Assembly: GCA_024226105.1 (NCBI GenBank)
Contig: JAAELZ010000211.1
Location: forward strand, 1-29,336
DNA: 29,336 nucleotides
Origin: Pseudomonadota bacterium
Lineage (GTDB): Bacteria; Pseudomonadota; Gammaproteobacteria; Arenicellales; Poriferihabitantaceae
Direction: 5' to 3'
Position numbers and translations under genes: made by a program. Shown here piece after piece: positions 2,964 through 21,349 of this stretch (positions are counted from its first letter, which is position 1; the number at the start of each line of letters is the position of its first letter). The notes beneath the pieces are model-generated. The model did no database searches and had not been told where the DNA came from. It saw nothing but the letters and a program-made list of their open reading frames with translations.

Positions 2964-3189
2964 TACCTCCTTCTATTACGAGGAGCCCATTTGTGCTGCC
3001 GGTGAAAAACCAGCTAACTGCACGTGTCTTTAATAACGTCTGGAAGAAAATACGCCTTGATACATATCAAGAGATTTTCGACAACGAGCGGCTTCATTCC
3101 CATAGGGGCATCAAATGATTCAATCTAAGCCGGAAATGTTCTAGCTCATGGAGGGCACTGTCAGAGGCATCATTCTTGCACCGGCCTCA

Positions 3190-3355
3190 TATGTTTCAAT
3201 CAAGCGGCAAATTGGACCTGGCCTTTTTTGATCAATATGACGTGCAAGATGTTCGCGGAAATTTGCAAAACCGATGCCGTATGCTGGATAACCTCTGGCG
3301 GAAACCGATGCCGCCTGCAGTAATTCATTGTCATCCTGGTTATCCGAACAATGCC
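3190..3355 (-). pseudogene. Degraded IS6-family transposase 5' remnant
   Basis: From ATG at 3334: MTMNYCRRHRFPPEVIQH, matching the IS6-family N-terminal Y.RHRFPPE.I.H motif. A shifted frame gives FREHLARHIDQKRPGP, resembling the FAR.IR..RP.P segment. GGCATTGTT (3347-3355) resembles IS6 terminal repeats. Boundaries approximate. Confidence 0.55.
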
Positions 3356-3600
3356 AGCAGTTTTCTTTTGATCTGTTGATCAGTTCCGCTGATTGAGCCA
3401 ACGCCAATTAGTCGGTCTATCAGGAATTCCGCCAATATCAGGGTTTCGGATGCGTCAGCAACTGCATGGTGCAACAAATTTTGCCAGATCTGTACAAGAT
3501 CTTTGTCCAGTTCTTCCACAAGTTTTAGGTCATCGGCATTTATAGCCAGTTCAATCTTAGATGAAATTTGTTGAAATCGTTTGGTAAGTTGCGTAATCAT
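3340..3600 (-). CDS. Hypothetical small alpha-helical protein (86 aa)
   Basis: Clean ORF in an otherwise unoccupied region, with amphipathic helical composition. Aligns without gaps over 35 aa to the 110-aa protein at 26856-27188. Confidence 0.7.
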   Translation of the reverse strand: MITQLTKRFQQISSKIELAINADDLKLVEELDKDLVQIWQNLLHHAVADASETLILAEFLIDRLIGVGSISGTDQQIKRKLLALFG

Positions 3601-3979
3601 GATTGCCTAACGTGCCAGCATCATGCTGTGAATCCTTGTGATTCAATTACCCCAATAAAAATATACGCACTGACCTATACCTGAAATTTTAGGTTATCGG
3701 CATATGAATGTGACAATGGCACAGAATAGATAAAAATTGAATTGTATTTTGTATTAATAGTTAATACCTTGAGCTAAATTGGAAATTGTTGTCGCAATAA
3801 TAATGATGATTGTGAAGTTATTCGTAGCAATCCAAAATAAATAAGCAAAAATTAACTCTTCAATATTAGATGACACTATATTTTTCCTGGTGTATAGAAG
3901 CATGCAATTACTTGATTGACTGGCGACAAATAAATGAGCTAATTTTATGCAAGATGATATGCCCGGATGAGGATTGGCC

Positions 3980-4978
3980 ATGGCATTCTATCACAATTTG
4001 AAAAACTACGAAGCGCAAAAGGCAAAATCAATTGCCCAGCGTTTGTTAATCTTGCGCAAGGAGTTAAGCGTTTCGCCAGGCGCCAAGCGTGCGCCCGGTT
4101 CGCTGGTGGTTGGTTCGTGGAACATACGTGCATTTGATGGAGGGCGTCCGCGGCGCGATGAGAGTTTTCACTACATTGCCGAAATTATTGACAAATTTGA
4201 TATCTGTGCGCTTCAGGAAATCAAAAAAGACCTGAAGCCACTGCGCCGGCTGGTTAAGCTGCTCGGGCCAAATTGGTCATACTTTGTTACCGATGTCACC
4301 GAAGGACATGCGGGAAACACCGAACGTATAGCGTTCTTATACAACACCAATCGTGTATTCTTCCGCAATCTTATTGGAGAACTGGTTTTACCGCCGGGAG
4401 ATTTGATCAATGGGCGCCAAATTGCCCGGACACCGTTTTTTGCATCTTTTCAGGCGGAATGGTTCAAGTTCACGTTATGCAGCGCGCACATTGCTTTTAA
4501 GGCTGCAGCTGGATTGGCGGATCAAGAACTCAGGCGGAGGGAAATTTCTACAATTGCCAGAGCCCTTGCCGCACGGGCTAAACAGGAAGGTGAGGTCTAT
4601 TTCTTTCTGGGAGACATGAACATAGACAGCCCGCAAGACCCGACAATGCAGGCACTGGAAGACAATGGTTTTAAAGCACCGTTGTTTGGCCCAACCAATC
4701 TCGCTGGCGGCAAACATTTTGATCAACTCGCGTATACTGGTGAAGGGCAACGCACCGACCTTCTTTCTCATGGCAAGTTCGATTGGCGCGGGGCGGTTTA
4801 CACGCCAGATGACCGCGATCATTATGAACCTATCGCTGCGCAAATGCGTGGTGAACCTTACGACAATTGGCCGTCAAAATACTCGGGTTGGACAACGCAT
4901 GAAATGTCAGATCATCTGCCAATCTGGGTTGAAGTGATGGTTGACTATTCGGATGCATATCTGGAGCGATTTATATAG
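3980..4978 (+). CDS. Endonuclease/exonuclease/phosphatase (EEP, DNase I-like) family protein
   Basis: SWNIRAFD, ALQEI, ERIAFLYN, LGDMNI and SDHLPIWVE motifs. Start placed at ATG 3980 (GAGGA 6 nt upstream) rather than the track's TTG 3974. Confidence 0.9.
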   Translation: MAFYHNLKNYEAQKAKSIAQRLLILRKELSVSPGAKRAPGSLVVGSWNIRAFDGGRPRRDESFHYIAEIIDKFDICALQEIKKDLKPLRRLVKLLGPNWSYFVTDVTEGHAGNTERIAFLYNTNRVFFRNLIGELVLPPGDLINGRQIARTPFFASFQAEWFKFTLCSAHIAFKAAAGLADQELRRREISTIARALAARAKQEGEVYFFLGDMNIDSPQDPTMQALEDNGFKAPLFGPTNLAGGKHFDQLAYTGEGQRTDLLSHGKFDWRGAVYTPDDRDHYEPIAAQMRGEPYDNWPSKYSGWTTHEMSDHLPIWVEVMVDYSDAYLERFI

Positions 4979-5033
4979 AAATAGGCAAATTGCCGAAGAA
5001 TATTCTGCCGTTGGTGGATAGAACCGGCATATC

Positions 5034-5639
5034 TCAAACTTTCAGGATGGCAATAATTTCTTCACAGGTAGTTATGGCAGCGATAGTGGATAAAGAGTCG
5101 ATGGTTGAGTTATGCGCTTGCTCGCTGAATGCGGCGCAGCCATTTTCGAGAACAATGCTGTGAAAATCGCGCACATGCGCATCCCTGAGGGTTGAAGCAA
5201 CGCCTCCATTGGTGACAATTCCCCCAAACACCAGGGTTTTCAATCCGGCACGATGCAATACCCACTCCAGACGGCTTTGGTAAAACGCCGAAAAGGCAAT
5301 TTTCTCCACCATCAGATCCACAGGTTGCATAGCATCAATCAACTGGTGCCCAAAGGTGCCCGGCGAGAAATCTCCTTTGCCCAGAAACGGGCGCAGCTTT
5401 TGCAGATGAGGTGAGATGAAGGGTTGTCCCGCCTTGCCTGGTACCAGTGTGAAATGGGTAGAGATGATCCAGCCTCCGGCGGCACGCATGGCATCGGCAA
5501 CTGGAACCAGTTGTTCAGGCAATGCGCTGATCGCTGCACATGTCTGTCCGGCACGACCATAGGCTCCTTCAGGGTGCAAAAAGTCATTTTGCATATCGAC
5601 CAGTACCAGTGCGGTGGTCTTCGGGTCAAATTCAAGCAT
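5034..5639 (-). CDS. Isochorismatase/cysteine hydrolase family protein (nucleophile Cys replaced by Gly)
   Basis: VDMQNDF (Asp), EKIAFSAF (Lys), and GIVTNGGVASTLRDA where TxxCV is expected. Starts 3 nt after the hydantoinase A stop. Confidence 0.9.
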   Translation of the reverse strand: MLEFDPKTTALVLVDMQNDFLHPEGAYGRAGQTCAAISALPEQLVPVADAMRAAGGWIISTHFTLVPGKAGQPFISPHLQKLRPFLGKGDFSPGTFGHQLIDAMQPVDLMVEKIAFSAFYQSRLEWVLHRAGLKTLVFGGIVTNGGVASTLRDAHVRDFHSIVLENGCAAFSEQAHNSTIDSLSTIAAITTCEEIIAILKV

Positions 5640-5642
5640 GGT

Positions 5643-7718
5643 TCAGGCCTTTTGATTGCGGGTGATGATCAGATTGCCGAAACGGTCCACCCTGCCTTCC
5701 AGCTCCGGCTCAATACAGATGGTGGCATCAGGTTGTTCCAGAATAGCCGGTCCGGGAATTTGGGTGCCGACTGATAGTGGCAGACGTTGATAGATTCCGG
5801 TCTGATGGAAGGCGTTGTCAAACCAAACCTGCCGGGTGCCGGTGCATGCGTCTTCCAGTGCCACGCCATCTGCCGGGGCTAGCATGGTCAGATCAAACTT
5901 GGGTCGCCTCCCGATGGCAGAGACGCGCAGGTTTAAGACCCGGACCGGTATGCCTGCAAGTGGCTTGCCGTACACTTCGCGGTAGCGGATCTCAAAAACA
6001 CTTGAGATAATATCCGTACTGATCCCGGTGTTGGTACCGTCAAAATCCAGTGGCACACTCACATCTACCGTATGCGTCTGGCCAACATAGCTCATGTCGA
6101 GTTCGAACCGGACTTCTGAGCTTTCAAACGCCACGCCGGTGTTTTCCAGCAGTTGAAATCCCTTGACCGCCAGGCCGGACAATTGCCTGTCCAGTCCTGA
6201 TATATCCAGCTGGCCCAAAATACCATTCACTGTCTGCACGAAATCATGACGCATGTCAGCAATCGTACAACCAAGGGCGGAATTGATACCAGGATAACGC
6301 GGCACCAAAGCACTTTTCAGGCCAACCTCCTTGATCAGCGCACCCGCATGCAGCGCGCCACCGCCACCAAATGGCATTGCGGAGAAGTTCTTGGGATCAT
6401 AACCGCGTTCGATCGACACCAGCCGGATAGCACCTGCCATTTTCGAGTTCGCCACTCGAATGACCGCCTCTGCTGCGCGCATGACGTCAAGACCAAGCGG
6501 CGTGGCGACATGGGTGTCTATTGCCGCCTTTGCCGCTTCTACATCCAGTCGGTCCAGCTTGCCACCGATGGGTTTATCGGCATTGATCCGGCCTAGTACC
6601 ACATTGGCGTCAGTAACGGTGGGGCGCTCATTGCCAAGCCCGTAACACACTGGTCCGGGGTCGGATCCCGCACTTTGTGGACCAACCTGCAGCAATCCGC
6701 CCGGGTCCACCGATGCGATAGAACCGCCACCGGCACCAATAGTGGTCATTTCGATCATCGGGGTGCGAACGGTCAGGCCGAAATCGATACTGGTTTGTGC
6801 AGCCAGCGAGCTTTGCCCGTCAACCACCAGCGAGACATCGAAACTGGTACCCCCCATGTCGCAGGTAATGACGTTAGGAAACCCGGCCTCGCTGGCGATA
6901 AATCCACTGGCAATCACCCCGGCGGCCGGTCCTGACAAAGTGGTGCGCACCGGCAATTGCCGGGCCGTATCGACGCTCATCACCCCGCCATTGGATTGCA
7001 CAATCAGTACTTCCCCCTCAAAGCCGTCATCGTGCAAAGCCTGTTCCAGCTTGTGCAGGTAACTTGCCACAACAGGTTGCAGGTAGGCATTCAGTGTGGT
7101 TGTTGAAGTTCTTTCAAATTCGCGAATTTCCGGGAGTATATCGCTCGAGGCTCCAACATGGTTGTTGGGCCATATCTCGCGCAGGATTTTCAGCGCGGTT
7201 CTTTCGTTTGCAGAGTTTGCATAAGCATTGATGAAAACAATACAGGCGGATTGGCATCCCAGCTCAAGCAGTTTATGCGCGGCTCGCTTCACCCCATTGG
7301 CATCCACGGTTGTGCGAATGGTGCCGTCGGCCAAGGTGCGTTCCGCCACCTCGACACGGCGGTTGCGTGGTACTACAGGCTCAAACTGCCCCCATAAACC
7401 CCAGGTATTGGGACGGTCCCGGCGGCGCATTTCCAGTACGTCCCGGAACCCTTGTGTGGTGATGATGCCGGTCCTGGCACCTTTTCGTTCCAGCAGGGCA
7501 TTGGTGCCAACAGTTGTTCCGTGCACAACCGTCGAGACATCGGCGAAATTTGCAATTTTCTGACGGATGCCTTCAATAAAACCTTTTGACTGGTCTGCAG
7601 GGGTTGATGGCACTTTGGTGACTTCGCAATGTCCGGAAACTTCATTCAGGAAGAAGACGTCGGTAAAGGTGCCGCCAACGTCGACACCAATCACATAGCG
7701 CGGTGCATCTTCGCTCAT
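5643..7718 (-). CDS. Hydantoinase/oxoprolinase family, A (ATP-binding) subunit
   Basis: GVDVGGTFTD, HGTTVGTNALLERKG, LSGPAAG, DMGGTSFD, GAGGGSIA, FGGGGALHA; 691 aa. ATGA overlap with the B-subunit stop. Confidence 0.95.
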   Translation of the reverse strand: MSEDAPRYVIGVDVGGTFTDVFFLNEVSGHCEVTKVPSTPADQSKGFIEGIRQKIANFADVSTVVHGTTVGTNALLERKGARTGIITTQGFRDVLEMRRRDRPNTWGLWGQFEPVVPRNRRVEVAERTLADGTIRTTVDANGVKRAAHKLLELGCQSACIVFINAYANSANERTALKILREIWPNNHVGASSDILPEIREFERTSTTTLNAYLQPVVASYLHKLEQALHDDGFEGEVLIVQSNGGVMSVDTARQLPVRTTLSGPAAGVIASGFIASEAGFPNVITCDMGGTSFDVSLVVDGQSSLAAQTSIDFGLTVRTPMIEMTTIGAGGGSIASVDPGGLLQVGPQSAGSDPGPVCYGLGNERPTVTDANVVLGRINADKPIGGKLDRLDVEAAKAAIDTHVATPLGLDVMRAAEAVIRVANSKMAGAIRLVSIERGYDPKNFSAMPFGGGGALHAGALIKEVGLKSALVPRYPGINSALGCTIADMRHDFVQTVNGILGQLDISGLDRQLSGLAVKGFQLLENTGVAFESSEVRFELDMSYVGQTHTVDVSVPLDFDGTNTGISTDIISSVFEIRYREVYGKPLAGIPVRVLNLRVSAIGRRPKFDLTMLAPADGVALEDACTGTRQVWFDNAFHQTGIYQRLPLSVGTQIPGPAILEQPDATICIEPELEGRVDRFGNLIITRNQKA

Positions 7719-9445
7719 GATTGTGCAGCCTTCCTCAGTTTGGTCGTTTGACGAGTGTTTACGTCGCCGTTCTGATCCAGCGCCACGGCGTAGTCTCGTA
7801 CAGCACTTTGCTGGCTGACAAAACCAAGGGCAACATCACGCGCTACAGCTGCCGGCTGGCGTTCAAACGGCAAGCCATAGCCGCCGCCGCCCGGGGTCTC
7901 CAGACGCACGCACTGGCCTTTCTTCAATTTGATCCCAACCATTTTTGAAACCATCGGCGGGATGTAATCGCCATCCTGCTGCTGGTAGGTGAATTTGTTA
8001 AGCGCCGCCGGTTTGCCACCGACAACGCCGGGGGGAGGGAATTTTCCACGTTCACCAAATAAAAAGACATCCGCATTTTCTTCCAGCAATTCAATTTCAT
8101 AGATTGCCCCAAGACCGCCACGGTGGCGTCCCGGTCCACCACTGTCAGGACGCAGGCTCCATTGGGTGAACATTACCGGATAAGCAGCTTCCAGTATTTC
8201 TGCCGGAGGAATGGTCGCGGTAGAAATTGGCGCATTACCATGGTTCAGGCCGTCGCCTTCAGGATGGCCACCATGACCGCCACCAAAAAATGAGAACATC
8301 ACCCAACGGCTTTTGTCTTTGCGAAAACCGGCAAGTGACAGGGCATTGATTGTACCATAAGCGCAACCATTGACCCGTTCGGGTGCCACATCCGCCAGGG
8401 CACAGAAAATCACGTCGATAATGCGCAGGATGGTTTCAGTATAACCCCCGACCGGTTTGGGCGCGCGTACGTTCAACAGTGAGGAATCCGGGATGATCAC
8501 CTCGATTGGCTCCAGAACGCCGGCATTGGCCGGGACTTCCGTAAACAGGTGTTTGGTGGCCACATAGATTGAGGCAATGGCGGTGGAGAGCGAGATATTG
8601 ACCGGTCCGGCACAGGCATCCGACGTGCGGCTAAAATCAAGCGTCATCCGATCATCTTTGATGGTCATATCCAGTACAATTTTCAATGGCTTGTCAACAA
8701 TGCCGTCATTGTCGAGAAAGTCTTCGGCTGAATAAGTTCCATCCGGCAAATCAGATATATTTGCCGCCATCAGTTTGGCCGCGCGATTGCGCAACTCCAG
8801 TAATGCTTCTGCCACAATTGTATCGGAATACTCATCCAGCAGTGCCTTCATCCGCCGCATTCCCAAATCAAGTGCGTTGATCTGTCCGTTCAGGTCGCCA
8901 TAAAGACTGCCAGGCAAGCGTGAATTCGCCAGCAGAATATCGACCACGTCCTGACGCAGCTCGCCCTTGCAAAAAAGTTTTACCGGCGGGATCAGCATGC
9001 CTTCCTGAAAACTTTCCGTAGCAACCGGGTTGTAGTTCCCGGGCACGTTGCCACCCACATCGTGCCAGTGACCGACCGAGGCAAGGAAGCAGAATATCTG
9101 GCCGTCCCGGTAGAAAGGCTGCACCAGCCTGAAATCTGAAAGATGAGTGCCACCATCATAGGGGTCATTAAAAATATAAATGTCGCCATCAGCCAGGTCA
9201 CCGTCCTTTGACGCTTTTTCAATCACTGCTTTCACAGCAAAAGACATGGCGCCGACGAAAATTGGCAAACCGGATTTACCCTGCACCAGCGTTTCGCCGG
9301 TCTTGGCGTGGTAAAGTCCGTGTGAGGCATCATGTGCCTCAGCAATTATTGGATTGAATGCGCTACGAAACAAGGTGGCATCCATTTCGTCCGCGATTTG
9401 TTCCAGACGGCCTTTCAGCACCGCCAGGGTCACTGGATCAATCAT
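7715..9445 (-). CDS. Hydantoinase B/oxoprolinase family subunit
   Basis: MIDPVTLAVL, FNDPYDGGTHLSD, GHWHDVGG, EGMLIPP, ETPGGGGYG. Start placed at ATG 9445 (GAGGA RBS, overlapping the lyase stop) rather than 9457. Confidence 0.95.
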   Translation of the reverse strand: MIDPVTLAVLKGRLEQIADEMDATLFRSAFNPIIAEAHDASHGLYHAKTGETLVQGKSGLPIFVGAMSFAVKAVIEKASKDGDLADGDIYIFNDPYDGGTHLSDFRLVQPFYRDGQIFCFLASVGHWHDVGGNVPGNYNPVATESFQEGMLIPPVKLFCKGELRQDVVDILLANSRLPGSLYGDLNGQINALDLGMRRMKALLDEYSDTIVAEALLELRNRAAKLMAANISDLPDGTYSAEDFLDNDGIVDKPLKIVLDMTIKDDRMTLDFSRTSDACAGPVNISLSTAIASIYVATKHLFTEVPANAGVLEPIEVIIPDSSLLNVRAPKPVGGYTETILRIIDVIFCALADVAPERVNGCAYGTINALSLAGFRKDKSRWVMFSFFGGGHGGHPEGDGLNHGNAPISTATIPPAEILEAAYPVMFTQWSLRPDSGGPGRHRGGLGAIYEIELLEENADVFLFGERGKFPPPGVVGGKPAALNKFTYQQQDGDYIPPMVSKMVGIKLKKGQCVRLETPGGGGYGLPFERQPAAVARDVALGFVSQQSAVRDYAVALDQNGDVNTRQTTKLRKAAQS

Positions 9446-10331
9446 TGTTATCCTCAAAGTTTACCGCATCGTAACTTGCTCCAAGGGCCAGCAGGTCATC
9501 GGTGCCGAGCAATCCGTTTAATCCGTCGAAGTCCAGCATCCGGTGTTGAAACGGCACGTTTGACCCATGAGTTTTAAGGCTAGAAAGATATTCCTGTATG
9601 GTCCTGGCTATGGCTCGCACCATGCCACCTGGAAAGATTGCAAGCGAAAATCCGATGGTTTTCAGTTCTGCAGCGGTTTTCTGGGGCGTCCTGCCACCCT
9701 CGACCATATTGGCCATCAGCGGTAGGCGAGATCCAAAACGCTCGACAATCGCCTGAATCTGTTCCATGGATTGTGGCGCTTCGACAAAAAGGATATCAGC
9801 CCCGGCCTCGGTATACTGTTCCGCGCGGTCCAGAGCAGCGTGAAAGCCTTCCACCGCAATGCCATCGGTACGCGCAATAATCAGGGTATCAGAACTACGC
9901 CGTGCATCCAGTGCCGCTTTGATCTTGCCGACCATTTCAGCGCTACTCACCAGTGTTTTGCCGCTCAGGTGACCGCAACGTTTGGGCAGGGTCTGATCCT
10001 CCAGCTGGATAGCGCCAGCCCCTGCGGATTCGAATAGGCGTATCGTGCGCATGACGTTGAGTGCATTGCCAAAACCGGTATCAGCATCGACCACAATGCG
10101 CAATTTACAACGTTCTGAGATTACCGACAGTGTTTCGGCAACTTCGGACATGCCAACCAGTCCGATATCCGGACGCCCAAATCGTGTATAGGCGATAGAT
10201 GCCCCCGAAAGATAGGCTGCGTGAAACCCCGCCTGTTCCACCATGGCGGCACCGAACGCATCAAATATGCCGGGAGCGATGGCAATCTCATCCCCGGATA
10301 ACTGGCTTTTCAGGTTTGGGTGGAGCGTCAC
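9438..10331 (-). CDS. Isocitrate lyase/PEP mutase family C-C lyase (methylisocitrate/dimethylmalate lyase-like)
   Basis: YLSGASIA, DADTGFG, LEDQ.LPKRCGH (catalytic Cys loop), IIARTD, ANMVEGGRTP. GTGA overlap with the LeuD-like gene. Confidence 0.93.
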   Translation of the reverse strand: MTLHPNLKSQLSGDEIAIAPGIFDAFGAAMVEQAGFHAAYLSGASIAYTRFGRPDIGLVGMSEVAETLSVISERCKLRIVVDADTGFGNALNVMRTIRLFESAGAGAIQLEDQTLPKRCGHLSGKTLVSSAEMVGKIKAALDARRSSDTLIIARTDGIAVEGFHAALDRAEQYTEAGADILFVEAPQSMEQIQAIVERFGSRLPLMANMVEGGRTPQKTAAELKTIGFSLAIFPGGMVRAIARTIQEYLSSLKTHGSNVPFQHRMLDFDGLNGLLGTDDLLALGASYDAVNFEDNND

Positions 10332-10831
10332 GTTGCAGCATCCCTTGTTGCCAGCCTTTTTTCCAGATGCTTCACCAGACCACCGTCTCTTACTATTTCC
10401 AGAAGATTGTCAGGCAATCGATCGCACTGATAGGTCTCATCGGTGGTGTGATTGGTAATTACGCCGTTTGCTGCATCTGCTGATATTTCATCACCCATGC
10501 GTATATTACCGGCATTTTTGCAAGTCAGCGCAACAACGCCAAAATTCAAGGCATTGCGAAAGAAAATTCCGGCAAAGGATTTGGCAACCAGTGTGCGCAC
10601 GCCAAGAAACTGCAGAGCCTGCACTGCCTGTTCGCGAGAAGAACCAATGCCGAAATTCTCACCGCCAACTATCACATCACCCGGATTTACATTCCCGGCA
10701 AATTGCGGATCAGCTGCCTCAAGACAATGATCGGCAAGTTGTTTTAGCGGGCCTTTCATGTAGAGACCGGGGGCAAGAATATCCGTATCGATGTTGTCAC
10801 CAAATACCCAGGCTTTCCCGTTTTTTGTCAT
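10328..10831 (-). CDS. 3-isopropylmalate dehydratase-like small subunit (short HacB/DmdB type)
   Basis: FGDNIDTDILAPG, NFGIGSSREQA, KSFAGIFFRNALNFG; 167 aa. Not named leuD because the context is catabolic. Confidence 0.93.
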   Translation of the reverse strand: MTKNGKAWVFGDNIDTDILAPGLYMKGPLKQLADHCLEAADPQFAGNVNPGDVIVGGENFGIGSSREQAVQALQFLGVRTLVAKSFAGIFFRNALNFGVVALTCKNAGNIRMGDEISADAANGVITNHTTDETYQCDRLPDNLLEIVRDGGLVKHLEKRLATRDAAT

Positions 10832-12105
10832 ATCCTACCCTCTTCAAGAAATTCCCGTGGATCAGTAATGAAACCGGTCACTGCACTTGCCGCCACAGTG
10901 TAGGGTGAACCGAGGTATACCTTTGACGTCAAAGCTCCCATACGTCCCTGAAAATTACGTGCGGTCGAGGAAATGCAGGTTTCATTTTCAGCCAGTACAC
11001 CCGCGCCATATCCAGCGCAAGCCCCACACCCCGAGGGCATCAGGATAGCGCCAGCTGCAGTCAGAGTTGCCAATGTACCATCACTCGCAGCGGCAGCGGT
11101 AATTCTGGTGCTCGCGGGCGCCAGTAGCAAACGGGTACTGCTGGAAATTTTGCGACCTTTCAAAACGGCGGCAGCCATATGCAGGTCATCCAGTTTTGCC
11201 CCGGTACAGCCCCCGATATAGGCCTGATGCACAGATACGCCCGTATGCATGTCCACTGGTGCGCAATTGGCCGGAGAATGAGGTGCTGCCACATAGGGGG
11301 AAAGGCTTGAGGCATCCACGAGGTGTGTTTTCAGATATTCTGCATCCGCGTCGCCCAACCATTTTTCTCGATCACCCGCATCACCGCCCGCGGCGCGAAT
11401 ATAGTCTGTTGTCGTTTCATCAGCAGCAATCAAACCGGTCTGTGCTCCAAGTTCCGCTGCCATGTTGCACAGCGTCATGCGGCTCATCATTGGCATATCG
11501 CAAACCGTGTTTCCGCAATACTCAATCACCTGATATTCCGCGCCACCTGTGCCTATACGTGCACATAGATGAAGGATGATATCCTTGGCGCATATGCCGG
11601 TTCCAAGAGAACCGTTTATATCGACACGTATGGTGCCCGGGACTTTTATCCATGTCTCGCCCGTTACCAGAATCCCGGCCATATCGGTGGCTCCCACGCC
11701 AAACATGAAACATCCAAATGCCCCCCCGGTTGGTGAATGGCTGTCACCGCCAACCACGAATTTGCCCGGTGACAAGTGGCCGCGCTCAGGCAGAACCACA
11801 TGGCAGATGCCCTGCATATCATAAAATCTGCTAATCCGGTTATCGCTCACCCATTTTCGGGTCATATCCAGTATTGCGGCACTCATCGCATCAACCGCCG
11901 GCACAAAATGATCCGAGATCACCACCACTTTGTCCGGGTTCCAGACTGTTGCACCAAGCTGTTCCAATATCGGTTTCACCCGCCGAGGACCGCCGCTGTC
12001 ATGCATCATCGCCAGATCGACCGTGCAGGTTACCACCTCGCCCGGATTAACGCTTTGGCGTCCGCATGCGCGTGCTATTATTTTTTCTGCCAGTGTTGCG
12101 GCCAT
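10828..12105 (-). CDS. 3-isopropylmalate dehydratase/aconitase-family large subunit (HacA/DmdA type)
   Basis: TLAEKII, DHFVP, GICH, GDSHS, RMTLCNMAAELGA; [4Fe-4S] ligands in IGGCT and SGCGAC; STARNFQGRMG; 425 aa. Confidence 0.95.
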   Translation of the reverse strand: MAATLAEKIIARACGRQSVNPGEVVTCTVDLAMMHDSGGPRRVKPILEQLGATVWNPDKVVVISDHFVPAVDAMSAAILDMTRKWVSDNRISRFYDMQGICHVVLPERGHLSPGKFVVGGDSHSPTGGAFGCFMFGVGATDMAGILVTGETWIKVPGTIRVDINGSLGTGICAKDIILHLCARIGTGGAEYQVIEYCGNTVCDMPMMSRMTLCNMAAELGAQTGLIAADETTTDYIRAAGGDAGDREKWLGDADAEYLKTHLVDASSLSPYVAAPHSPANCAPVDMHTGVSVHQAYIGGCTGAKLDDLHMAAAVLKGRKISSSTRLLLAPASTRITAAAASDGTLATLTAAGAILMPSGCGACAGYGAGVLAENETCISSTARNFQGRMGALTSKVYLGSPYTVAASAVTGFITDPREFLEEGRI

Positions 12106-12126
12106 TATTTTTATAGTTCCAGGCGA

Positions 12127-13452
12127 CTAGTTTCCCATCAATACCGGGTCAAATGGATAGGTGGTCAGGTTTTCGTGACCATCTTGTGTTATCAGGACCT
12201 GATCTTCAAGCTTGATCGAGAAATCCCCTCCTACAGCACCTACGAGTGCTTCGACGCACAGCACCATTCCGGGCTCCAGAACATAGTCGAATGCCCCTTC
12301 GACAAACTGGCTTGGATAGGCAATTGTTGGCCATTCATCGCACAGGCCCACGCCGTGCATTTTGCAACCATATTTCAGAGGTTCAAATACATCGTCGAGA
12401 TGGTGCCCGCCATAGGTCAACTCGCTCATACTGACGCCTGGTTTCAGCATTTCAATATTGGTCATTATATGCTCATGTGCGTGGCGCATAGCATAGACCA
12501 TTTCATTTGATGGCTTATCATCGCCAAACCACCAGGTTCGAGAAATATCAACGCAGATGCCATAAGTGCCGATCAGATCGGTATCAAAGGCGACTATCTC
12601 ATTGTTTTGCAGAATTCGGGGGCCACATTCCTGGAACCACGGATTAGTTCGCGGGCCAGTTGTCAGCAAACGCGTCTCAATCCATTCACCACCACGTTTG
12701 ATGTTTTCTGCGTGAAGAACCGCCCAGATTTCATCCTCGGAAAGGCCCGTCCGTGTCTGCTCATACATCGCACCAACGGCGGTTTCGCCAGCATGCATGG
12801 CGCAGCGCATGGCAAGGATCTCATCGGGCCCTTTTATCGAGCGGCTTTTCTCGGTAACTTCCTCACCTTCCTCAATCGTGAAGCCCGTTGCTTCAAGCGC
12901 CTTCAGACCGGCAATCTGAATTTTGTCGACGGCCAGGGCGCGGTTATCACCGGAATGTTCACGCATTAATTCGTCAACCTGAACAACGAAACTCCTTGCA
13001 TCGTCTTCACCCTTGTCACCGCTGACCATATAAAAGGATGAAGCGCCCGAGCGGCATTCTCGAACCAGTGGATTGAAATCCGCCAGAAAAGGCGAATTCT
13101 TGTAATCCCAGATCACCATATATCCGTCGGCACACAAAAGGACCGCACGGAAAGGATTGTGGGTATTCCACAATTGCATGTTTGTGGTGTCTGTGGCGTA
13201 GCGGATATTAAGCGGATCAAACATCAGCAACCCACCATAGTGCCGCTCTACTATGTGCTGGGTAAGCCGCTTCCAGCGAAATTCCCGCATACGCTGTAGA
13301 TTTGGTAAGGTCAGTCCGGCCCTCTCCCACTCCCGGAAGGCCAGTTGAGTTGGTCCGATTTCGATACGGTCAAGATCGTTTGGTGTTCCATCACCCAGGG
13401 TCGTTCCTCGGCTTGGATCTATCTTGCGGATGTCAGAATAATACTGTTTCAT
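12127..13452 (-). CDS. dddP: Dimethylsulfoniopropionate (DMSP) lyase DddP (M24 peptidase fold)
   Basis: RKIDPSRG.TLGD.TPND..RIEIGPTQLAF.EW, TNMQLWN.HNPFRA, WIETRLL..GPRTNPWFQECG, and metal ligands FDTD, VDISR, MHGVG, CVEA, KLEDQ closely match roseobacter DddP as I recall it. Start set at ATG 13452 (MKQYYSD); the track's 13596 start is an extension. Confidence 0.93.
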   Translation of the reverse strand: MKQYYSDIRKIDPSRGTTLGDGTPNDLDRIEIGPTQLAFREWERAGLTLPNLQRMREFRWKRLTQHIVERHYGGLLMFDPLNIRYATDTTNMQLWNTHNPFRAVLLCADGYMVIWDYKNSPFLADFNPLVRECRSGASSFYMVSGDKGEDDARSFVVQVDELMREHSGDNRALAVDKIQIAGLKALEATGFTIEEGEEVTEKSRSIKGPDEILAMRCAMHAGETAVGAMYEQTRTGLSEDEIWAVLHAENIKRGGEWIETRLLTTGPRTNPWFQECGPRILQNNEIVAFDTDLIGTYGICVDISRTWWFGDDKPSNEMVYAMRHAHEHIMTNIEMLKPGVSMSELTYGGHHLDDVFEPLKYGCKMHGVGLCDEWPTIAYPSQFVEGAFDYVLEPGMVLCVEALVGAVGGDFSIKLEDQVLITQDGHENLTTYPFDPVLMGN

Positions 13453-13760
13453 GGCCATCATTCCAATCTGTTTTATCAACGGTAAGAACATTACAAATTG
13501 GTTGTCAATGAATTTTTGTGCCGATCCTGGCATCGCAAAAGGAATGCGGCTGGCAGTCGGGGGATGGATGGTTTGCGCGGCTTTTTTCAAATGCAAAATT
13601 AATAGATTGATTCAGGAAAGCTCTCTATTGTCAGTTGAGTTTTTCTATATATCTGGATAGCTGCTCTCGCGGCAAGAACTGCGGAGAGCAATTTGAACAT
13701 TTGACTTTTTGACGGGTACTTCTGTTCGCACTGCCTTGCATATTCCCGCAAATTTGAGAT

Positions 13761-15540
13761 TTACAAATTGAGAGTATCAGGATCAATGTCCAAAATTGCC
13801 TGATAGTGACTCAAATAGACCTTGCCGGTCAGGTGCTTGAAAAACTCCATTTTCTTCAAGCCGTCCATAACCGGGCCTTTGATTTCGGACATTCAAAACA
13901 GAACACCTGAATCTTTAAGCCTGTGGTTGATTTCTTCAATGCTTTCAAGTGCGCTCGCGTCAATGGCGTTCACGGCTGAACACATCAGAACTACATGTTT
14001 GATTTCAGGACGGCTGGTTATGTAGCCGTAAATAAAATCCTCCAGATAGCGGGCATTGGCAAAATACAGGCTTTCGTCGATCCTGATGGAAACGACCGAG
14101 GGACTGGTGTTTACATTGTGGCGCAGAATATTACGGAAGTGCTCGCTCCCCGCGACATTGCCAACAATCGCCAAATGCGGCCTGCTGGTATTATAAAGAT
14201 GGATTCCCACGGACAAGGCAACACCGACCGTAATACCCAGTTCCAAACCGAATATCAGCGTCACCACTATTGTTGCCAGCATCGCTGAAAAATCCGTGCG
14301 TGAATACCGCCAGGTGTGACGCATTGTTGCAAAGTTGATAAGCGAAACAACCGCAACAATGATAATTGCCGCCAGCGTCGCGACTGGAAGATAATATAGC
14401 ATAGGCGTCAGCAATAGCGTCGCGACAGCAATGCAAACGGCAGTGAAGGCGCCAGCCGCAGGGGTCTTTGCGCCGGCATCAAAGTTGACGACCGAACGCG
14501 AGAAACCTCCGGTTACCGGATAGGCCCCTGAAAATGCCGAGCCGAGATTTGCCATCCCAAGACCAATCAGTTCCTGATTTGGATTGATGCGCTGCCGTTT
14601 CTTTGCCGCCAGTGTCTGGGCAATCGAGATAGACTCCACGAAGCCAATTATACTGATAAGCATCGCCGGGCCTGCAAGTGCCGACCATAATTCCATATCA
14701 AAGGAAGGAATTGAAAAACCTGGCAATCCAACCGGTACTTCACCGATAATGTGCACACCGTAACCGGCAAAGTCAAAAACCGCGGAAACAATTACCGTCA
14801 CGCTGACTGCAATCAGCGGGCCGGCCTTGGCGAGAACCGACGCCAGAATTGAGTTGGCACCTTTGGAAATCAGGAAAGGTTTTAGGAGATTTTCTGGACC
14901 AGTACAAAAATACAATAACGCCGATGCCCAATATCAGACTGATCAGATTGGTTTGTGTGATTTGTCCCAGAATAGATGTGACCAGCTGATAAAATCCTCG
15001 CCCCGCAACCTTTATGCCAAGAAGATGTTTTAGCTGGCTGGTTGCTATGATAATTGCCGCCGCATTGATAAAACCGGTAATCACCGGATGGCTTAGAAAA
15101 TTGGCCAAAAAACCCAGTCTGAATACTCCCATGGCCAGCAGGAACAGGCCTGAAATGAATGCAAGCAGGATCGCGGCGGTCAGATATTCCGCTGTACCCT
15201 GATCGGCAATTGTGCCAACCGCGGAAGCAGTCAACAGGGAAACGACCGCCACAGGGCCAACCGCCATCACTCGACTGGTGCCAAATAGCGCATAGGCAAC
15301 GAGTGGTAAAATGCTGGCATACAGGCCAATTTCCGGAGGCAGCCCGGCAAGCAGTGCATAGGCCAGGGCCTGGGGGATGAGCATTATAGTGACAGTGATC
15401 GCGGCAACCAGATCGTTTGAAAACGTATTCGTGTTGTAGGTAGCAAGCCATTCAGCTGGTGGAAACCAGCTGGAAATTGTGCCCGAATTTAGATCCAGTC
15501 TGACCTGTTTGGCTGCATTCACCAATTTATCAAGTTTCAA
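13761..15540 (-). pseudogene. SulP/SLC26 family anion permease with STAS domain, disrupted
   Basis: The N-half (IPQALAYA.LAGLPP..GLYAS, GPVAVVSL, LSHPVITGF) and the C-half (QELIGLG, TGGFSRS, RIDESLYFAN) are in different frames; removing one G at 14885-14886 restores WSRKSLKPF. An in-frame TGA at 13893-13895 is followed by the normal tail MSEIKGPVMD...NL to TAA at 13761. Confidence 0.9.
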
Positions 15541-19202: not shown

Positions 19203-20414
19203 TCAAGCTGCGTTCCTTGTTTTTGCGGGCGGCGGATGTGTCCAGGGTTTTTCGGCTCTGGGGAAGGTTTCAATGATGATCATAGGCCCGCCACAACATG
19301 GGCAGGACGGCAATTCCATGGCAGATACATTGTCGCCTTCATTGGGGTCGCCTTCATTGGGTGTTTCGTTGTCAGGCGGTAGATCAAGCAATTTACGGCA
19401 CAGGGCAATGTTCCTGGCGCGATAGCCATTGGCAAACAGACCGTAATGGCGGATGCGATGAAAGCCATGCGGCAGGACGTGGATGAGAAAGCGGCGGATG
19501 AACTCGCCTGCATCCAGGGTCATAGTTTTCTGTCGGTCCCGCCCTTTTGCACGGTAATCCTTCCATTTGAACGTGACTTGATTATCCTCAATTTTCAGCA
19601 GACGGCTGTTTGCGATAGCCACTCTGTGGGTGTAGCGGGACAGGTAAGCAAGAACCGCTTTTGGTCCGGCAAAGGGGCGTTTGGCGTAAACGACCCAATT
19701 GGTTTTGTGTAAACGTGCCAGGAAGCCTGCGAATGCCGCGCTATCCGCCAGGTGGATGTGTTCACTGAAGAAGCTCAATCGCCCCGCCTCATGTGCCGCA
19801 AACAGCTTCTCAAGAAACAACCGGCGGAACAATTTTGAGAGTACCCATACGGGCAGGAAGAAGCCGGGCTTGCAGGATACCCATGTTTTTTCATCCCGCG
19901 ATATCCCGCCACCGGGCACGATCATGTGTACATGGGGATGATGAGTCATGGCAGAGCCCCATGTGTGGAGAACAGATGTCATCCCGATCTTTGCCCCCAG
20001 ATGTCTGAGATCGGCAGCGATGGTGATCATGGTCTGGGAACTGGCTTTAAGCAGCAGATCGTAAACTACCGCCTTGTTGTGATAGGCAATATCGGCGATT
20101 GCAGCAGGTAACGTAAAGACCACATGGTAGTAGGGCACTGGTAGCAATTCCGCCTGTCGCGCCTCCAGCCATTTGATGGCCGCACCGCCTTGGCACTTGG
20201 GACAGTGCCGGTTGCGGCAGGAATTGTAGGCGATCCGCAAATGCTCACAATCGGCGCACTGTTCCACATGGCCACCGAGTGTTGCAGTACGGCAGATCTC
20301 GATTGCACTCATCACCTTCAACTGGCCGAGGCTTATGTGACCGGCATTGGCTCTACGCCATGCCGCCCCGTGATCGCGGAAGATGTCCGCAACCTCCAAT
20401 CTTGCACGGGACAT
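19203..20414 (-). CDS. IS91-family transposase (zinc-binding domain + HUH/Y2)
   Basis: LEVADIFR, CRT..LGGH...C..C, NSCRNRHCPKCQ, HUH motif HPHVHMIV, Y2 motif YLSRYTHR, FHRIRHYGL, C-terminal CPCC; 403 aa, no lesion seen. Confidence 0.95.
   Translation of the reverse strand: MSRARLEVADIFRDHGAAWRRANAGHISLGQLKVMSAIEICRTATLGGHVEQCADCEHLRIAYNSCRNRHCPKCQGGAAIKWLEARQAELLPVPYYHVVFTLPAAIADIAYHNKAVVYDLLLKASSQTMITIAADLRHLGAKIGMTSVLHTWGSAMTHHPHVHMIVPGGGISRDEKTWVSCKPGFFLPVWVLSKLFRRLFLEKLFAAHEAGRLSFFSEHIHLADSAAFAGFLARLHKTNWVVYAKRPFAGPKAVLAYLSRYTHRVAIANSRLLKIEDNQVTFKWKDYRAKGRDRQKTMTLDAGEFIRRFLIHVLPHGFHRIRHYGLFANGYRARNIALCRKLLDLPPDNETPNEGDPNEGDNVSAMELPSCPCCGGPMIIIETFPRAEKPWTHPPPAKTRNAA
19332..19361. repeat. 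15-bp tandem duplication inside the transposase C-terminal linker
   Basis: GTCGCCTTCATTGGG x2, in frame (PNEGD PNEGD). Confidence 0.9.
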
Positions 20415-20427
20415 GGATCTGCGGCGA

Positions 20428-21303
20428 TTATCCGGTGCTCACTCCGGATTTGGTCAATATCTTATCGAGCGGGCTCATAACCTCGCGGATCGTTTTGGTC
20501 GCCACCTGTGTGTACAATGCCGTGGTGGTCAGCTTCTTGTGCCCAAGCAGCACCTGGATCACGCGAATATCGATGTTCTGCTCCAGCAGATGTGTTGCAA
20601 ACGAATGCCTGAGCGTGTGTGGCGTTACCCGTTTGTCGATCTCCGCCATTTGAACCGCGGCATGGCAGGCACGGTTGAACTGGCGGGCTGAGATGGGATT
20701 GACTGGGTTCTGGCCGGGAAACAGCCAGCCCTGCGGTCGGGCCTCAACCCACCAGGCACGAAGCAGTTCAAGCAGGTGGGGTGACAGCATCACATAGCGG
20801 TCTTTACCGCCCTTGCCCTGTTCCACGCGGATGACCATGCGTTCTGAATCAATATCGGCAATCTTCAGCGAGGCTACCTCTGACGCGCGTAATCCGCAGC
20901 CATAGGCAACGCTCAATGCCGCCTTATACTTCAACCCAGGACCGGGAGCGCATTCAAGCAGGCGTGCCACCTCCTCAGGGCTTAAAACCACCGGTAATTT
21001 GCGGGGCTGGCGTACCGTGCTGGTAAATTTTCTGACATCATCGCGCCCCAGTGTGGTGCCGAAGAAAAACCGCAAGGCCGAAACGGCGGCGTTGATCGTA
21101 AAGGGTGAAGTACCATTATCGCTCAGATGCAACTGGTAGCGGCGAATATCCTCACCGCTGGCCTGATCCGGCGGGAAGCCCAGAAACCGGCTGAAGTTCT
21201 TAATACGCCGGATGTAATCCTTCTGCGTCTTCTCACCAAACCGGCGGATCGACATGTCTTCAATCATACGTGTGCGAAGTGTGGAAACCTTCTCCTGTGT
21301 CAT
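20428..21303 (-). CDS. Tyrosine recombinase/integrase with N-terminal SAM-like domain
   Basis: Full catalytic set: GLRASE (R), QGKGGKDR (K), HTLRHSFATH (HxxR), LLGH, TALYT (Y). Start ATG 21303 with AGGAG RBS, not the track's 21345. Confidence 0.95.
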   Translation of the reverse strand: MTQEKVSTLRTRMIEDMSIRRFGEKTQKDYIRRIKNFSRFLGFPPDQASGEDIRRYQLHLSDNGTSPFTINAAVSALRFFFGTTLGRDDVRKFTSTVRQPRKLPVVLSPEEVARLLECAPGPGLKYKAALSVAYGCGLRASEVASLKIADIDSERMVIRVEQGKGGKDRYVMLSPHLLELLRAWWVEARPQGWLFPGQNPVNPISARQFNRACHAAVQMAEIDKRVTPHTLRHSFATHLLEQNIDIRVIQVLLGHKKLTTTALYTQVATKTIREVMSPLDKILTKSGVSTG

Positions 21304-21324
21304 GGGAATACTCCTGTTTACTAA

Positions 21325-21349
21325 ACTTGTGACTTTTACAATCACAAGT
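21325..21349. promoter_or_regulatory. Inverted repeat just upstream of the recombinase RBS
   Basis: ACTTGTGA-N9-TCACAAGT, perfect 8-bp arms. Candidate autoregulatory site or RNA hairpin. Confidence 0.5.

Follow-up and report, generated by a model that had tools for sequence, protein, structure and literature searches.

Which compound do six tightly packed genes of a gammaproteobacterium break down, and do those six genes suffice for the task? The questions are raised by contig JAAELZ010000211.1 of the Pseudomonadota bacterium assembly GCA_024226105.1 (order Arenicellales, family Poriferihabitantaceae), of which positions 1 to 29,336, the whole stretch of 29,336 nucleotides (nt) that we analyzed, are called the window here. 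On its minus strand, at 5034 to 12105, the window carries six co-directional, translationally coupled open reading frames (ORFs), which encode a LeuC-like and a LeuD-like subunit of an Fe-S hydro-lyase (together LeuCD), a C-C lyase of the isocitrate lyase (ICL)/phosphoenolpyruvate (PEP)-mutase superfamily, the HyuB- and HyuA-type subunits of a putative ATP-dependent lactamase, and an isochorismatase-fold protein (Iso). We propose, with moderate confidence, that they are the enzymatic core of a widespread and uncharacterized catabolic module for a small carboxylated cyclic amide (a pyroglutamate-like lactam or a related ring), present here as a truncated, horizontally acquired copy behind dddP, a gene for a dimethylsulfoniopropionate (DMSP) lyase. 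An earlier sequence-only reading had given exactly these coordinates and families, and Pfam and NCBIfam assignments bear out its gene identities (Table 1). The six genes are where it placed them, but its span was too narrow and overlooked dddP, which starts the same gene string 21 nt upstream.

Conservation of the module in other genomes

A scan of a genome collection with the lyase as query returned 80 loci at 59 to 96% identity, mostly in Alphaproteobacteria (Stappia, Roseibium, Hoeflea, Ferrovibrio, Breoghania, and Roseomonas) with a few in Beta- and Gammaproteobacteria. Gene neighbors were counted at the 50 lyase loci flanked on both sides by 7 kb or more. HyuA, HyuB, and Iso were found near the lyase at 36 of these loci, always all three together, and LeuCD orthologues at 25. 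The same neighborhoods often held an FAD_binding_2 flavoprotein of the flavocytochrome-c/soluble fumarate reductase type (31/50), a HutC-type GntR regulator (31/50), a branched-chain-type ATP-binding cassette (ABC) binding protein (24/50), or a SnoaL-like protein (21/50), and more rarely a PrpD/MmgE-family protein (5/50); DddP was near the lyase at none of the 50. This gene order is far from chance. On an Azospirillum oryzae plasmid, a single operon contains the GntR regulator, five ABC genes, the lyase, HyuB, HyuA, Iso, the FAD protein, LeuC, and LeuD.

The hydratase differs among the clusters. In Azospirillum oryzae LeuCD is of the bacterial type and lies at the distal end of the operon, whereas the window has archaeal-type LeuCD at the proximal end, and at two loci (L021 and L043) a PrpD-family gene replaces LeuCD directly upstream of the lyase. 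That three non-orthologous hydratases (archaeal-type LeuCD, bacterial-type LeuCD, and PrpD/MmgE) fill one slot is strong evidence that hydration and C-C cleavage share a pathway with HyuAB.

The flavoprotein of the canonical cluster distantly resembles TcuA and flavocytochrome c, and at some loci the pair of lyase and flavoprotein persists without the other module genes, adjoining other transporters. Variant clusters carry TctC-containing tripartite tricarboxylate transporters (TTT) and tripartite ATP-independent periplasmic (TRAP) transporters, and five related clusters carry genes of the Amdase/maleate-isomerase family. Literature searches on the gene combination, on dimethylmaleate hydratase/dimethylmalate lyase, and on randomly barcoded transposon sequencing (RB-TnSeq) data found no characterization of the module, in line with the sequence-only reading, which had known of no characterized pathway with this gene set.

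HyuA, HyuB, and the substrate ring

HyuA and HyuB are nearest to caprolactamase and N-methylhydantoinase, in the lactamase/hydantoinase branch, and not to the acetone or acetophenone carboxylases. HyuB scores 270 bits against caprolactamase 6YRA_B and 260 bits against N-methylhydantoinase 7HK5. Scores against the caprolactamase equivalogs fell well below their cut-offs, with 543 bits against 1000 for CapA and 321 bits against 1000 for CapB.

A second lead to the substrate comes from the binding protein of the canonical clusters, whose closest solved structure is SAR11_0655/8WCH (133 bits, as opposed to at most 69 bits for amino-acid binders). SAR11_0655 binds L-pyroglutamate (Kd below 5 nM) and exemplifies a new ABC transporter class (PMC11485210). 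Because the binding protein is nearest to an L-pyroglutamate binder and HyuA/HyuB are nearest to caprolactamase and N-methylhydantoinase, a small carboxylated lactam is our best guess at the substrate class. Several named candidates were also considered, namely creatinine/N-methylhydantoin, nicotinate (as tetrahydro-6-oxonicotinate), citrazinate/tricarballylate-imide, 2-hydroxy-5-oxoproline, and an opine-lactam; none accounts for all of the enzymes, and none was named as the substrate. NCBIfam scans of the variable neighbors (an FAD_binding_3 monooxygenase and Amdase-like, GMC, ALDH, and SDR proteins) returned no substrate-naming equivalog.

An isochorismatase-fold protein without the nucleophile cysteine

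Iso has a Gly at the position of the nucleophile Cys, where the window reads TNGGVAST in alignment with TNCCVEST in 3KL2 and TEV(S)VQTS in 6XJ4. The stretch GIVTNGGVASTxRDAHVR is invariant in 29 orthologues, while the Asp (DxQNDF) and the Lys (EKxAxSAF) are retained, so that of the Asp-Lys-Cys triad of isochorismatase-like cysteine amidohydrolases (NicF, N-carbamoylsarcosine amidase [CSHase], RutB, and BiuH) only the first two residues are present. Iso also stays below the curated equivalog cut-offs for RutB (82 bits against 378), BiuH (63 bits against 370), and PncA. The closest solved relatives of Iso are nevertheless Cys hydrolases (3KL2, biuret hydrolase, and RutB), and PhzD is matched at an E value of 1e-7. 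True isochorismatases (PhzD and EntB) have Gly at this position, and their Asp is the general acid that hydrolyzes the vinyl ether.

Cys-bearing paralogues with 27 to 32% identity (TNMCVETT, TSGCVRAT, and TNVCCDSS) occur near the module at five loci and confirm the register of the alignment. Since Gly replaces the nucleophile in all 29 orthologues, Iso, as judged from its residues, is not a cysteine hydrolase of the maleamate-amidase type, and the analogy with maleamate amidohydrolase that the sequence-only reading had drawn fails. An identity as N-carbamoylsarcosine amidase was rejected for want of the same Cys. At the five loci (L036, L055, L066, L076, and L080) the second isochorismatase-family gene, with a canonical Cys, stands beside the Cys-less protein or replaces it. 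The amide hydrolysis of the pathway, if there is any, may be carried out by this paralogue in those clusters.

The Cys-less Iso accompanies HyuAB in 36/36 HyuAB-bearing loci. We tentatively suggest that it has a new activity, as a non-nucleophilic hydrolase or deaminase acting on the ring-opened product of the lactamase, and that the module is an undescribed lower pathway that takes pyroglutamate-like carboxy-lactams, possibly from pigment or N-heterocycle breakdown, to pyruvate or glyoxylate plus a dicarboxylate; this fuller proposal is possible, though doubtful.

The hydro-lyase, the lyase, and their intermediate

The LeuC-like protein scores 358 bits against the M. jannaschii isopropylmalate isomerase 4KP1 and 354 bits against the homoaconitase 4KP2. 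The cysteines that bind the [4Fe-4S] cluster in the aconitase superfamily are all present (C300, C360, and C363), and the LeuD-like protein contains GSSREQA, in keeping with the GSSRE motif of small subunits of aconitase-superfamily hydro-lyases. Scores against the leucine-type equivalogs fall short, at 237 bits against a cut-off of 560 for LeuC (TIGR00170) and 43 against 116 for LeuD (TIGR00171). Canonical leuC (TIGR00170, 763 bits) and leuD (TIGR00171, 260 bits) lie together on another contig of the assembly (C222), and a role of the window's genes in leucine biosynthesis was rejected on that account. The sequence-only reading had been ready to give up its pathway if the LeuC/D-like genes were the only copies in the genome, and they are not. 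A second canonical leuC is present on contig C464; this duplication may reflect a strain mixture or contamination of the metagenome-assembled genome (MAG), which is reported at 5.5%.

In methanogens, a loop of the small subunit sets specificity, and the Arg of the homoaconitase loop YLRT binds the distal carboxylate. By alignment, the loop is YMKG in the window, against YLVY in 3VBA (isopropylmalate isomerase) and YLRT in 2PKP (homoaconitase), and K or R is found in the loop of nearly all 41 orthologues.

The best NCBIfam match of the lyase is prpB (TIGR02317), at 275.9 bits below the cut-off of 354.4, and its scores against solved structures are 187 bits for 1ZLP, 184 bits for 3EOO, and 162 bits for the fungal 2,3-dimethylmalate lyase (DML) 3FA3. 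The motifs of a C-C lyase of the ICL/PEP-mutase superfamily, PKRCGH (residues 116 to 121), DADTG, and EDQ, are kept in 81 sequences. The lyase retains an Arg aligned with the one that contacts the succinate carboxylate in PrpB (GGMVRA against CGAYRAM in 3EOO), a position at which petal death protein has Tyr, although it otherwise resembles petal death protein (NMVEGG). Taken together, the K/R of the LeuD loop, the Arg that the lyase retains, the replacement of LeuCD by PrpD, the TcuA-like flavoprotein, and, in variant clusters, the TctC/TTT and TRAP transporters suggest that the intermediate is more probably aconitate-like and carboxy-substituted than a plain alkyl-maleate.

The sequence-only reading had proposed otherwise, namely a self-sufficient six-gene pathway for a maleimide, a pyrrolinone, or another N-heterocycle, in which HyuAB would open the ring and Iso would act as an amidase like maleamate amidohydrolase. 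Hydration of an alkyl-maleate by LeuCD and cleavage of the resulting alkyl-malate by the lyase would follow, on the model of DmdAB and Dml in Eubacterium barkeri. The enzyme families fit such a scheme, the lyase shares NMVEGG with petal death protein, a 2-alkylmalate lyase, and the Amdase/maleate-isomerase-family genes of five related clusters mean that a maleate-type intermediate is still possible. However, the nucleophile Cys is absent from all Iso orthologues while genuine Cys-type paralogues adjoin the module in some clusters, and the flavoprotein, importer, and regulator that are conserved elsewhere are missing here, which contradicts the idea that the six genes are the whole pathway. In addition, the K/R of the LeuD loop, the PrpB-type Arg, the PrpD replacements, and the TTT transporters of some clusters indicate a more anionic substrate and make a plain alkyl-maleate doubtful. 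We therefore consider a self-sufficient alkyl-maleate pathway unlikely. Its ring opening, hydration, and C-C cleavage hold up and are kept in the carboxy-lactam module proposed here; its amide hydrolysis, its completeness with six genes, and its alkyl-maleate are unsupported.

Gene coordinates and junctions

The features of the locus are listed in Table 1. Read from LeuC to Iso, successive genes meet in ATGA, in GTGA, in an 8-nt overlap, and in ATGA again, and the last pair is separated by 3 nt. The probable start of HyuB is the ATG at 9445, which overlaps the lyase stop and is where the similarity to the caprolactamase beta subunit begins. Scans for promoters and terminators found sites no more numerous than in shuffled sequence. 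Near the end of HyuA, at window position 5649, a related strain in the public sequencing run X4 (described below) has a 1-nt insertion two codons before the stop, a trivial change of the C terminus.

Table 1. Features of the module and its upstream neighbors in the window
Feature	Coordinates	Strand	Basis and remarks
Isochorismatase-fold protein (Iso)	5034..5639	-	PF00857, E 9e-35; keeps Asp15 and Lys113, Gly at nucleophile Cys position (TNGGVAST)
HyuA-type subunit	5643..7718	-	Hydantoinase_A, 306 bits, plus its N- and C-terminal domains
HyuB-type subunit, putative ATP-dependent lactamase/hydantoinase	7715..9445 (ORF to 9457)	-	PF02538, 556 bits
PrpB/petal-death-protein-like C-C lyase, ICL/PEP-mutase superfamily	9438..10331	-	PF13714, 143 bits; KRCGH loop
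LeuD-like small subunit, specificity loop YMKG	10328..10831	-	TIGR02087, 174 bits
LeuC-like Fe-S hydro-lyase large subunit, archaeal type, 425 aa	10828..12105	-	NF001614, 532 bits; hacA_fam, 470 bits
DddP-LeuC spacer, 21 nt, strain-polymorphic breakpoint near 12122	12106..12126	-	Sequence reading and run contigs
dddP, DMSP lyase, M24 fold	12127..13452	-	NCBIfam DddP equivalog, 832 bits
1.7-kb segment with frameshifted SulP gene	13667..15407	.	Context only, outside the pathway; Sulfate_transp half-matches

dddP and its junction with the module

The identity of DddP is clear. It passes the NCBIfam equivalog for this DMSP lyase (cut-off, 600 bits) and aligns over its full length with the characterized Ruegeria lacuscaerulensis DddP 4RZY (770 bits; residues 49 to 488 of the long ORF), with the blocks DTD...D, HGVGLCDEW, CVEA, and KLED identical. 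The alignment with 4RZY also sets the start at the Met at 13452, within a longer ORF that reaches 13596. A second DddP-like gene, 41% identical, is present on contig C60 of the assembly.

The window region is contained in three public sequencing runs of the same study (X1, X2, and X4). The junction between DddP and LeuC is bridged by contigs in X2 and X4. A 33.9-kb contig from a different sample covers 4000 to 13666 at about 96% identity, and a second contig spans 12070 to 13666; the junction is therefore not a chimera, and chimerism of the assembly was rejected. Other contigs in X1 and X2 depart from the window at 12122, just past the dddP stop, and enter unrelated AT-rich sequence. The presence of dddP may thus be polymorphic among strains, some of which would have another gene ahead of the LeuC-like one. 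The 30-nt alternative sequence beyond 12122 was not found in 31 related genomes, and look-ups of the exact DddP and LeuC proteins in public assemblies gave no match.

Could DddP supply the substrate of the six enzymes? It would release dimethyl sulfide (DMS) and acrylate, or act on a DMSP analogue, the six enzymes would metabolize the product, and DddP would stand in for the flavoprotein as the source of an unsaturated acid. The genes are on the same strand, 21 nt apart and with no terminator-like site between them, the junction occurs in two strains from different samples, and the one place with DddP is also the place that lacks the flavoprotein. The linkage, however, has no parallel, for the module was found beside other DddP genes in 0 of 29 genomes of the order and at 0 of 80 metagenome DddP loci, just as DddP is absent from the 50 module neighborhoods. 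Literature searches on dddP neighborhoods found no characterization. The divergence of the X1 and X2 contigs at 12122 makes the junction itself possibly polymorphic, and the close match of DddP to characterized DMSP lyases over its full length also counts against this reading. Acrylate, moreover, is a monocarboxylate and an improbable substrate for LeuCD- or ICL-type enzymes. Because no other DddP locus has the module and no other module locus has DddP, DddP is probably not chemically linked to the module, and we regard a DMSP-linked operon as highly improbable. Given the 21-nt spacer, the module is nevertheless likely to be co-transcribed with dddP.

A truncated copy of probable foreign origin

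No regulator, importer, SnoaL-like gene, or flavoprotein adjoins the six genes in the window, and no orthologue of the flavoprotein was found in the whole assembly, which is 89.8% complete. The closest relatives of the module, at 79 to 86% identity in MAGs of Rhizobiaceae and Rhodobacteraceae, have the full canonical cluster; the window copy thus looks derived by loss at both ends. A MAG contig that is 96% identical (L004) shares the truncated 3' end, where Iso is followed by an endonuclease/exonuclease/phosphatase (EEP) family nuclease gene. Of the window sequence beyond Iso, L004 shares only 3139 to 5036, the similarity ending at 3139; the HyuA alignment between the two contains one gap somewhere along its length. 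A 34-nt stretch at 3111 to 3144 matches assembly contig C187 at 91% and may mark a repeat or a recombination site at the edge of this block. Inside the EEP-family gene (3974 to 4978), strains of X1 and X2 lack 80 bp (4449 to 4530).

A HyuB orthologue was sought in 68 further genomes of the family, 8 of them from the same genus, and was found in none. At the DNA level, nothing in the first 19 kb of the window matches the 8 congeners except for weak similarity within dddP, and the window DddP is 54 to 56% identical to that of the congeners but 75 to 81% identical to that of other lineages and metagenome contigs. The operon is separated by 7 kb from an IS91/Y2-type transposase (19203 to 20414) and a tyrosine recombinase (20428 to 21345), whose presence would fit a mobile island. 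Because HyuB is absent from the 68 family genomes, synteny with congeners is lacking, DddP is nearer to other lineages, and a transposase and an integrase are nearby, we take the region to be an island gained by horizontal transfer, although the contig may instead be mis-binned.

Upstream of dddP, a SulP-family gene (13893 to 15540) is split into two overlapping frames, 14773 to 15540 and 13893 to 14915, which match Sulfate_transp positions 1 to 185 and 190 to 380. A 1732-bp segment is bounded by a 9-bp direct repeat, TCGCGGCAA, at 13667 to 13675 and 15399 to 15407. The deleted form (joint 13666>15399) has a depth of 28 to 37 in X1, X2, and X4, whereas the depth across the segment is 3 to 9 in X1 and X2 and 0 in X4. 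The SulP segment is absent from the dominant strain in the three runs.

Such surroundings raise the prospect that the truncated module is a leftover that has lost its function and is heading to decay within a mobile island. Loss of the regulator, transporter, and flavoprotein would agree with this, as would the frameshifted SulP gene, deleted in most strains, the IS91-type transposase and integrase nearby, and the absence of the module from all family relatives. The six ORFs, on the other hand, are intact and translationally coupled, their catalytic motifs are intact, and the ratios of nonsynonymous to synonymous substitution (dN/dS) between the window and L004, the strain that shares the truncated end, are 0.06 for HyuB, 0.10 for LeuD, 0.18 for the lyase, and 0.20 for Iso, at a dS of about 0.12 to 0.16. 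With dN/dS of 0.06 to 0.20, the truncated module is still under purifying selection, and decay is very unlikely.

Proposed pathway

In the pathway that we propose, HyuB and HyuA would first open the ring with ATP. The Cys-less Iso would then process the ring-opened product by non-nucleophilic chemistry with Asp as the acid, of the isochorismatase (PhzD/EntB) type, hydrolyzing an enamine, a carbinolamine, or a vinylogous N group with release of ammonia and not an amide through an acyl-cysteine. In the canonical cluster, the fumarate-reductase-type flavoprotein would next introduce or remove a C=C bond next to a carboxylate. The LeuCD-like Fe-S hydro-lyase would hydrate or isomerize an aconitate-like, carboxy-substituted unsaturated acid, and the PrpB-like lyase would cleave the resulting hydroxy-acid, giving pyruvate or glyoxylate as the 2-oxoacid together with another acid. 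In the window copy, regulator, importer, and flavoprotein would have been lost, and dddP, acquired in a separate event, would have been joined 21 nt upstream, the module and dddP probably being transcribed together. Because it is under purifying selection, the truncated module should still be of use to the cell, and its substrate may be an intermediate that arrives by a different route.

Several points weigh against this proposal. The order of the steps comes from the enzyme families only. The role given to Iso is an analogy to isochorismatases, and the protein could be a non-catalytic partner or catalyze something unforeseen. The lead from the binding protein is homology at about the 30% level and comes from the clusters of relatives, not from this window, and the argument from the K/R of the LeuD loop draws by analogy on the literature on methanogen homoaconitase. 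Public RNA runs contain none of the window sequence. Finally, the assembly has 89.8% completeness and 5.5% contamination, which leaves room for a flavoprotein gene that failed to assemble and for mis-binning of the contig.

Carriers of the module are numerous among soil, plant-associated, and marine bacteria (Azospirillum, Roseibium, Stappia, Hoeflea, and Paraburkholderia among them), and identification of the module's substrate would reveal a common environmental N-containing ring acid along with its route into central metabolism. Annotation pipelines call the Cys-less Iso branch "cysteine hydrolase," and solving the pathway would give this branch a function. The copy in the window indicates that the module can be reduced to six core enzymes, moved horizontally, and placed behind a DMSP lyase gene, yet be kept by selection, and the truncated copy helps to tell core steps from accessory ones.

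Comparison with known systems

The last steps of nicotinate fermentation in Eubacterium barkeri are catalyzed by DmdAB (2,3-dimethylmaleate hydratase) and Dml (2,3-dimethylmalate lyase). As there, the window has a two-subunit LeuCD-type hydro-lyase beside an ICL/PEP-mutase lyase with KRCGH, and both would end a pathway for an N-heterocycle. Unlike the E. barkeri route, the module contains neither an enamidase nor a B12 mutase nor a PrpF-type isomerase. In the window and in the 80 annotated related loci, no member of the enamidase, 2-methyleneglutarate mutase, or methylitaconate isomerase families occurs. The sequence-only reading, too, had concluded that this is not simply the E. barkeri route. 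The window lyase is also no nearer to the fungal DML (162 bits) than to PrpB and petal death protein (184 to 187 bits), and the K/R of the LeuD loop suggests a charged substituent.

In the creatinine route, an ATP-dependent N-methylhydantoinase (HyuAB) is followed by N-carbamoylsarcosine amidase, which has the isochorismatase fold. The module resembles it in having an isochorismatase-fold protein directly after a HyuA/HyuB pair, but here Iso lacks the catalytic Cys of the CSHase type, and the genes are joined to a hydratase and a C-C lyase, neither of which is needed to form sarcosine. ATP-dependent lactam opening would be shared with 5-oxoprolinase-type lactamases and with the caprolactamase CapAB of Pseudomonas jessenii (6YRA), which is the best match of HyuA/HyuB both among solved structures and in NCBIfam, although the scores lie far under the CapAB equivalog cut-offs and the gene context differs.

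The combination of a dehydratase or hydratase with a PrpB-like lyase follows the logic of the methylcitrate cycle (PrpD, aconitase, and PrpB) and of tricarballylate oxidation (TcuA), and a PrpD-family protein does replace LeuCD in some clusters. In contrast to the methylcitrate cycle, the lyase is under the prpB cut-off, PrpC and PrpE are absent, and there is the linkage to HyuAB. With the isochorismatases EntB and PhzD, the window Iso shares the fold, the Asp and Lys, and the Gly in place of the nucleophile Cys; it differs from them in its low similarity (E value of 1e-7 to PhzD) and in lying outside any siderophore or phenazine context.

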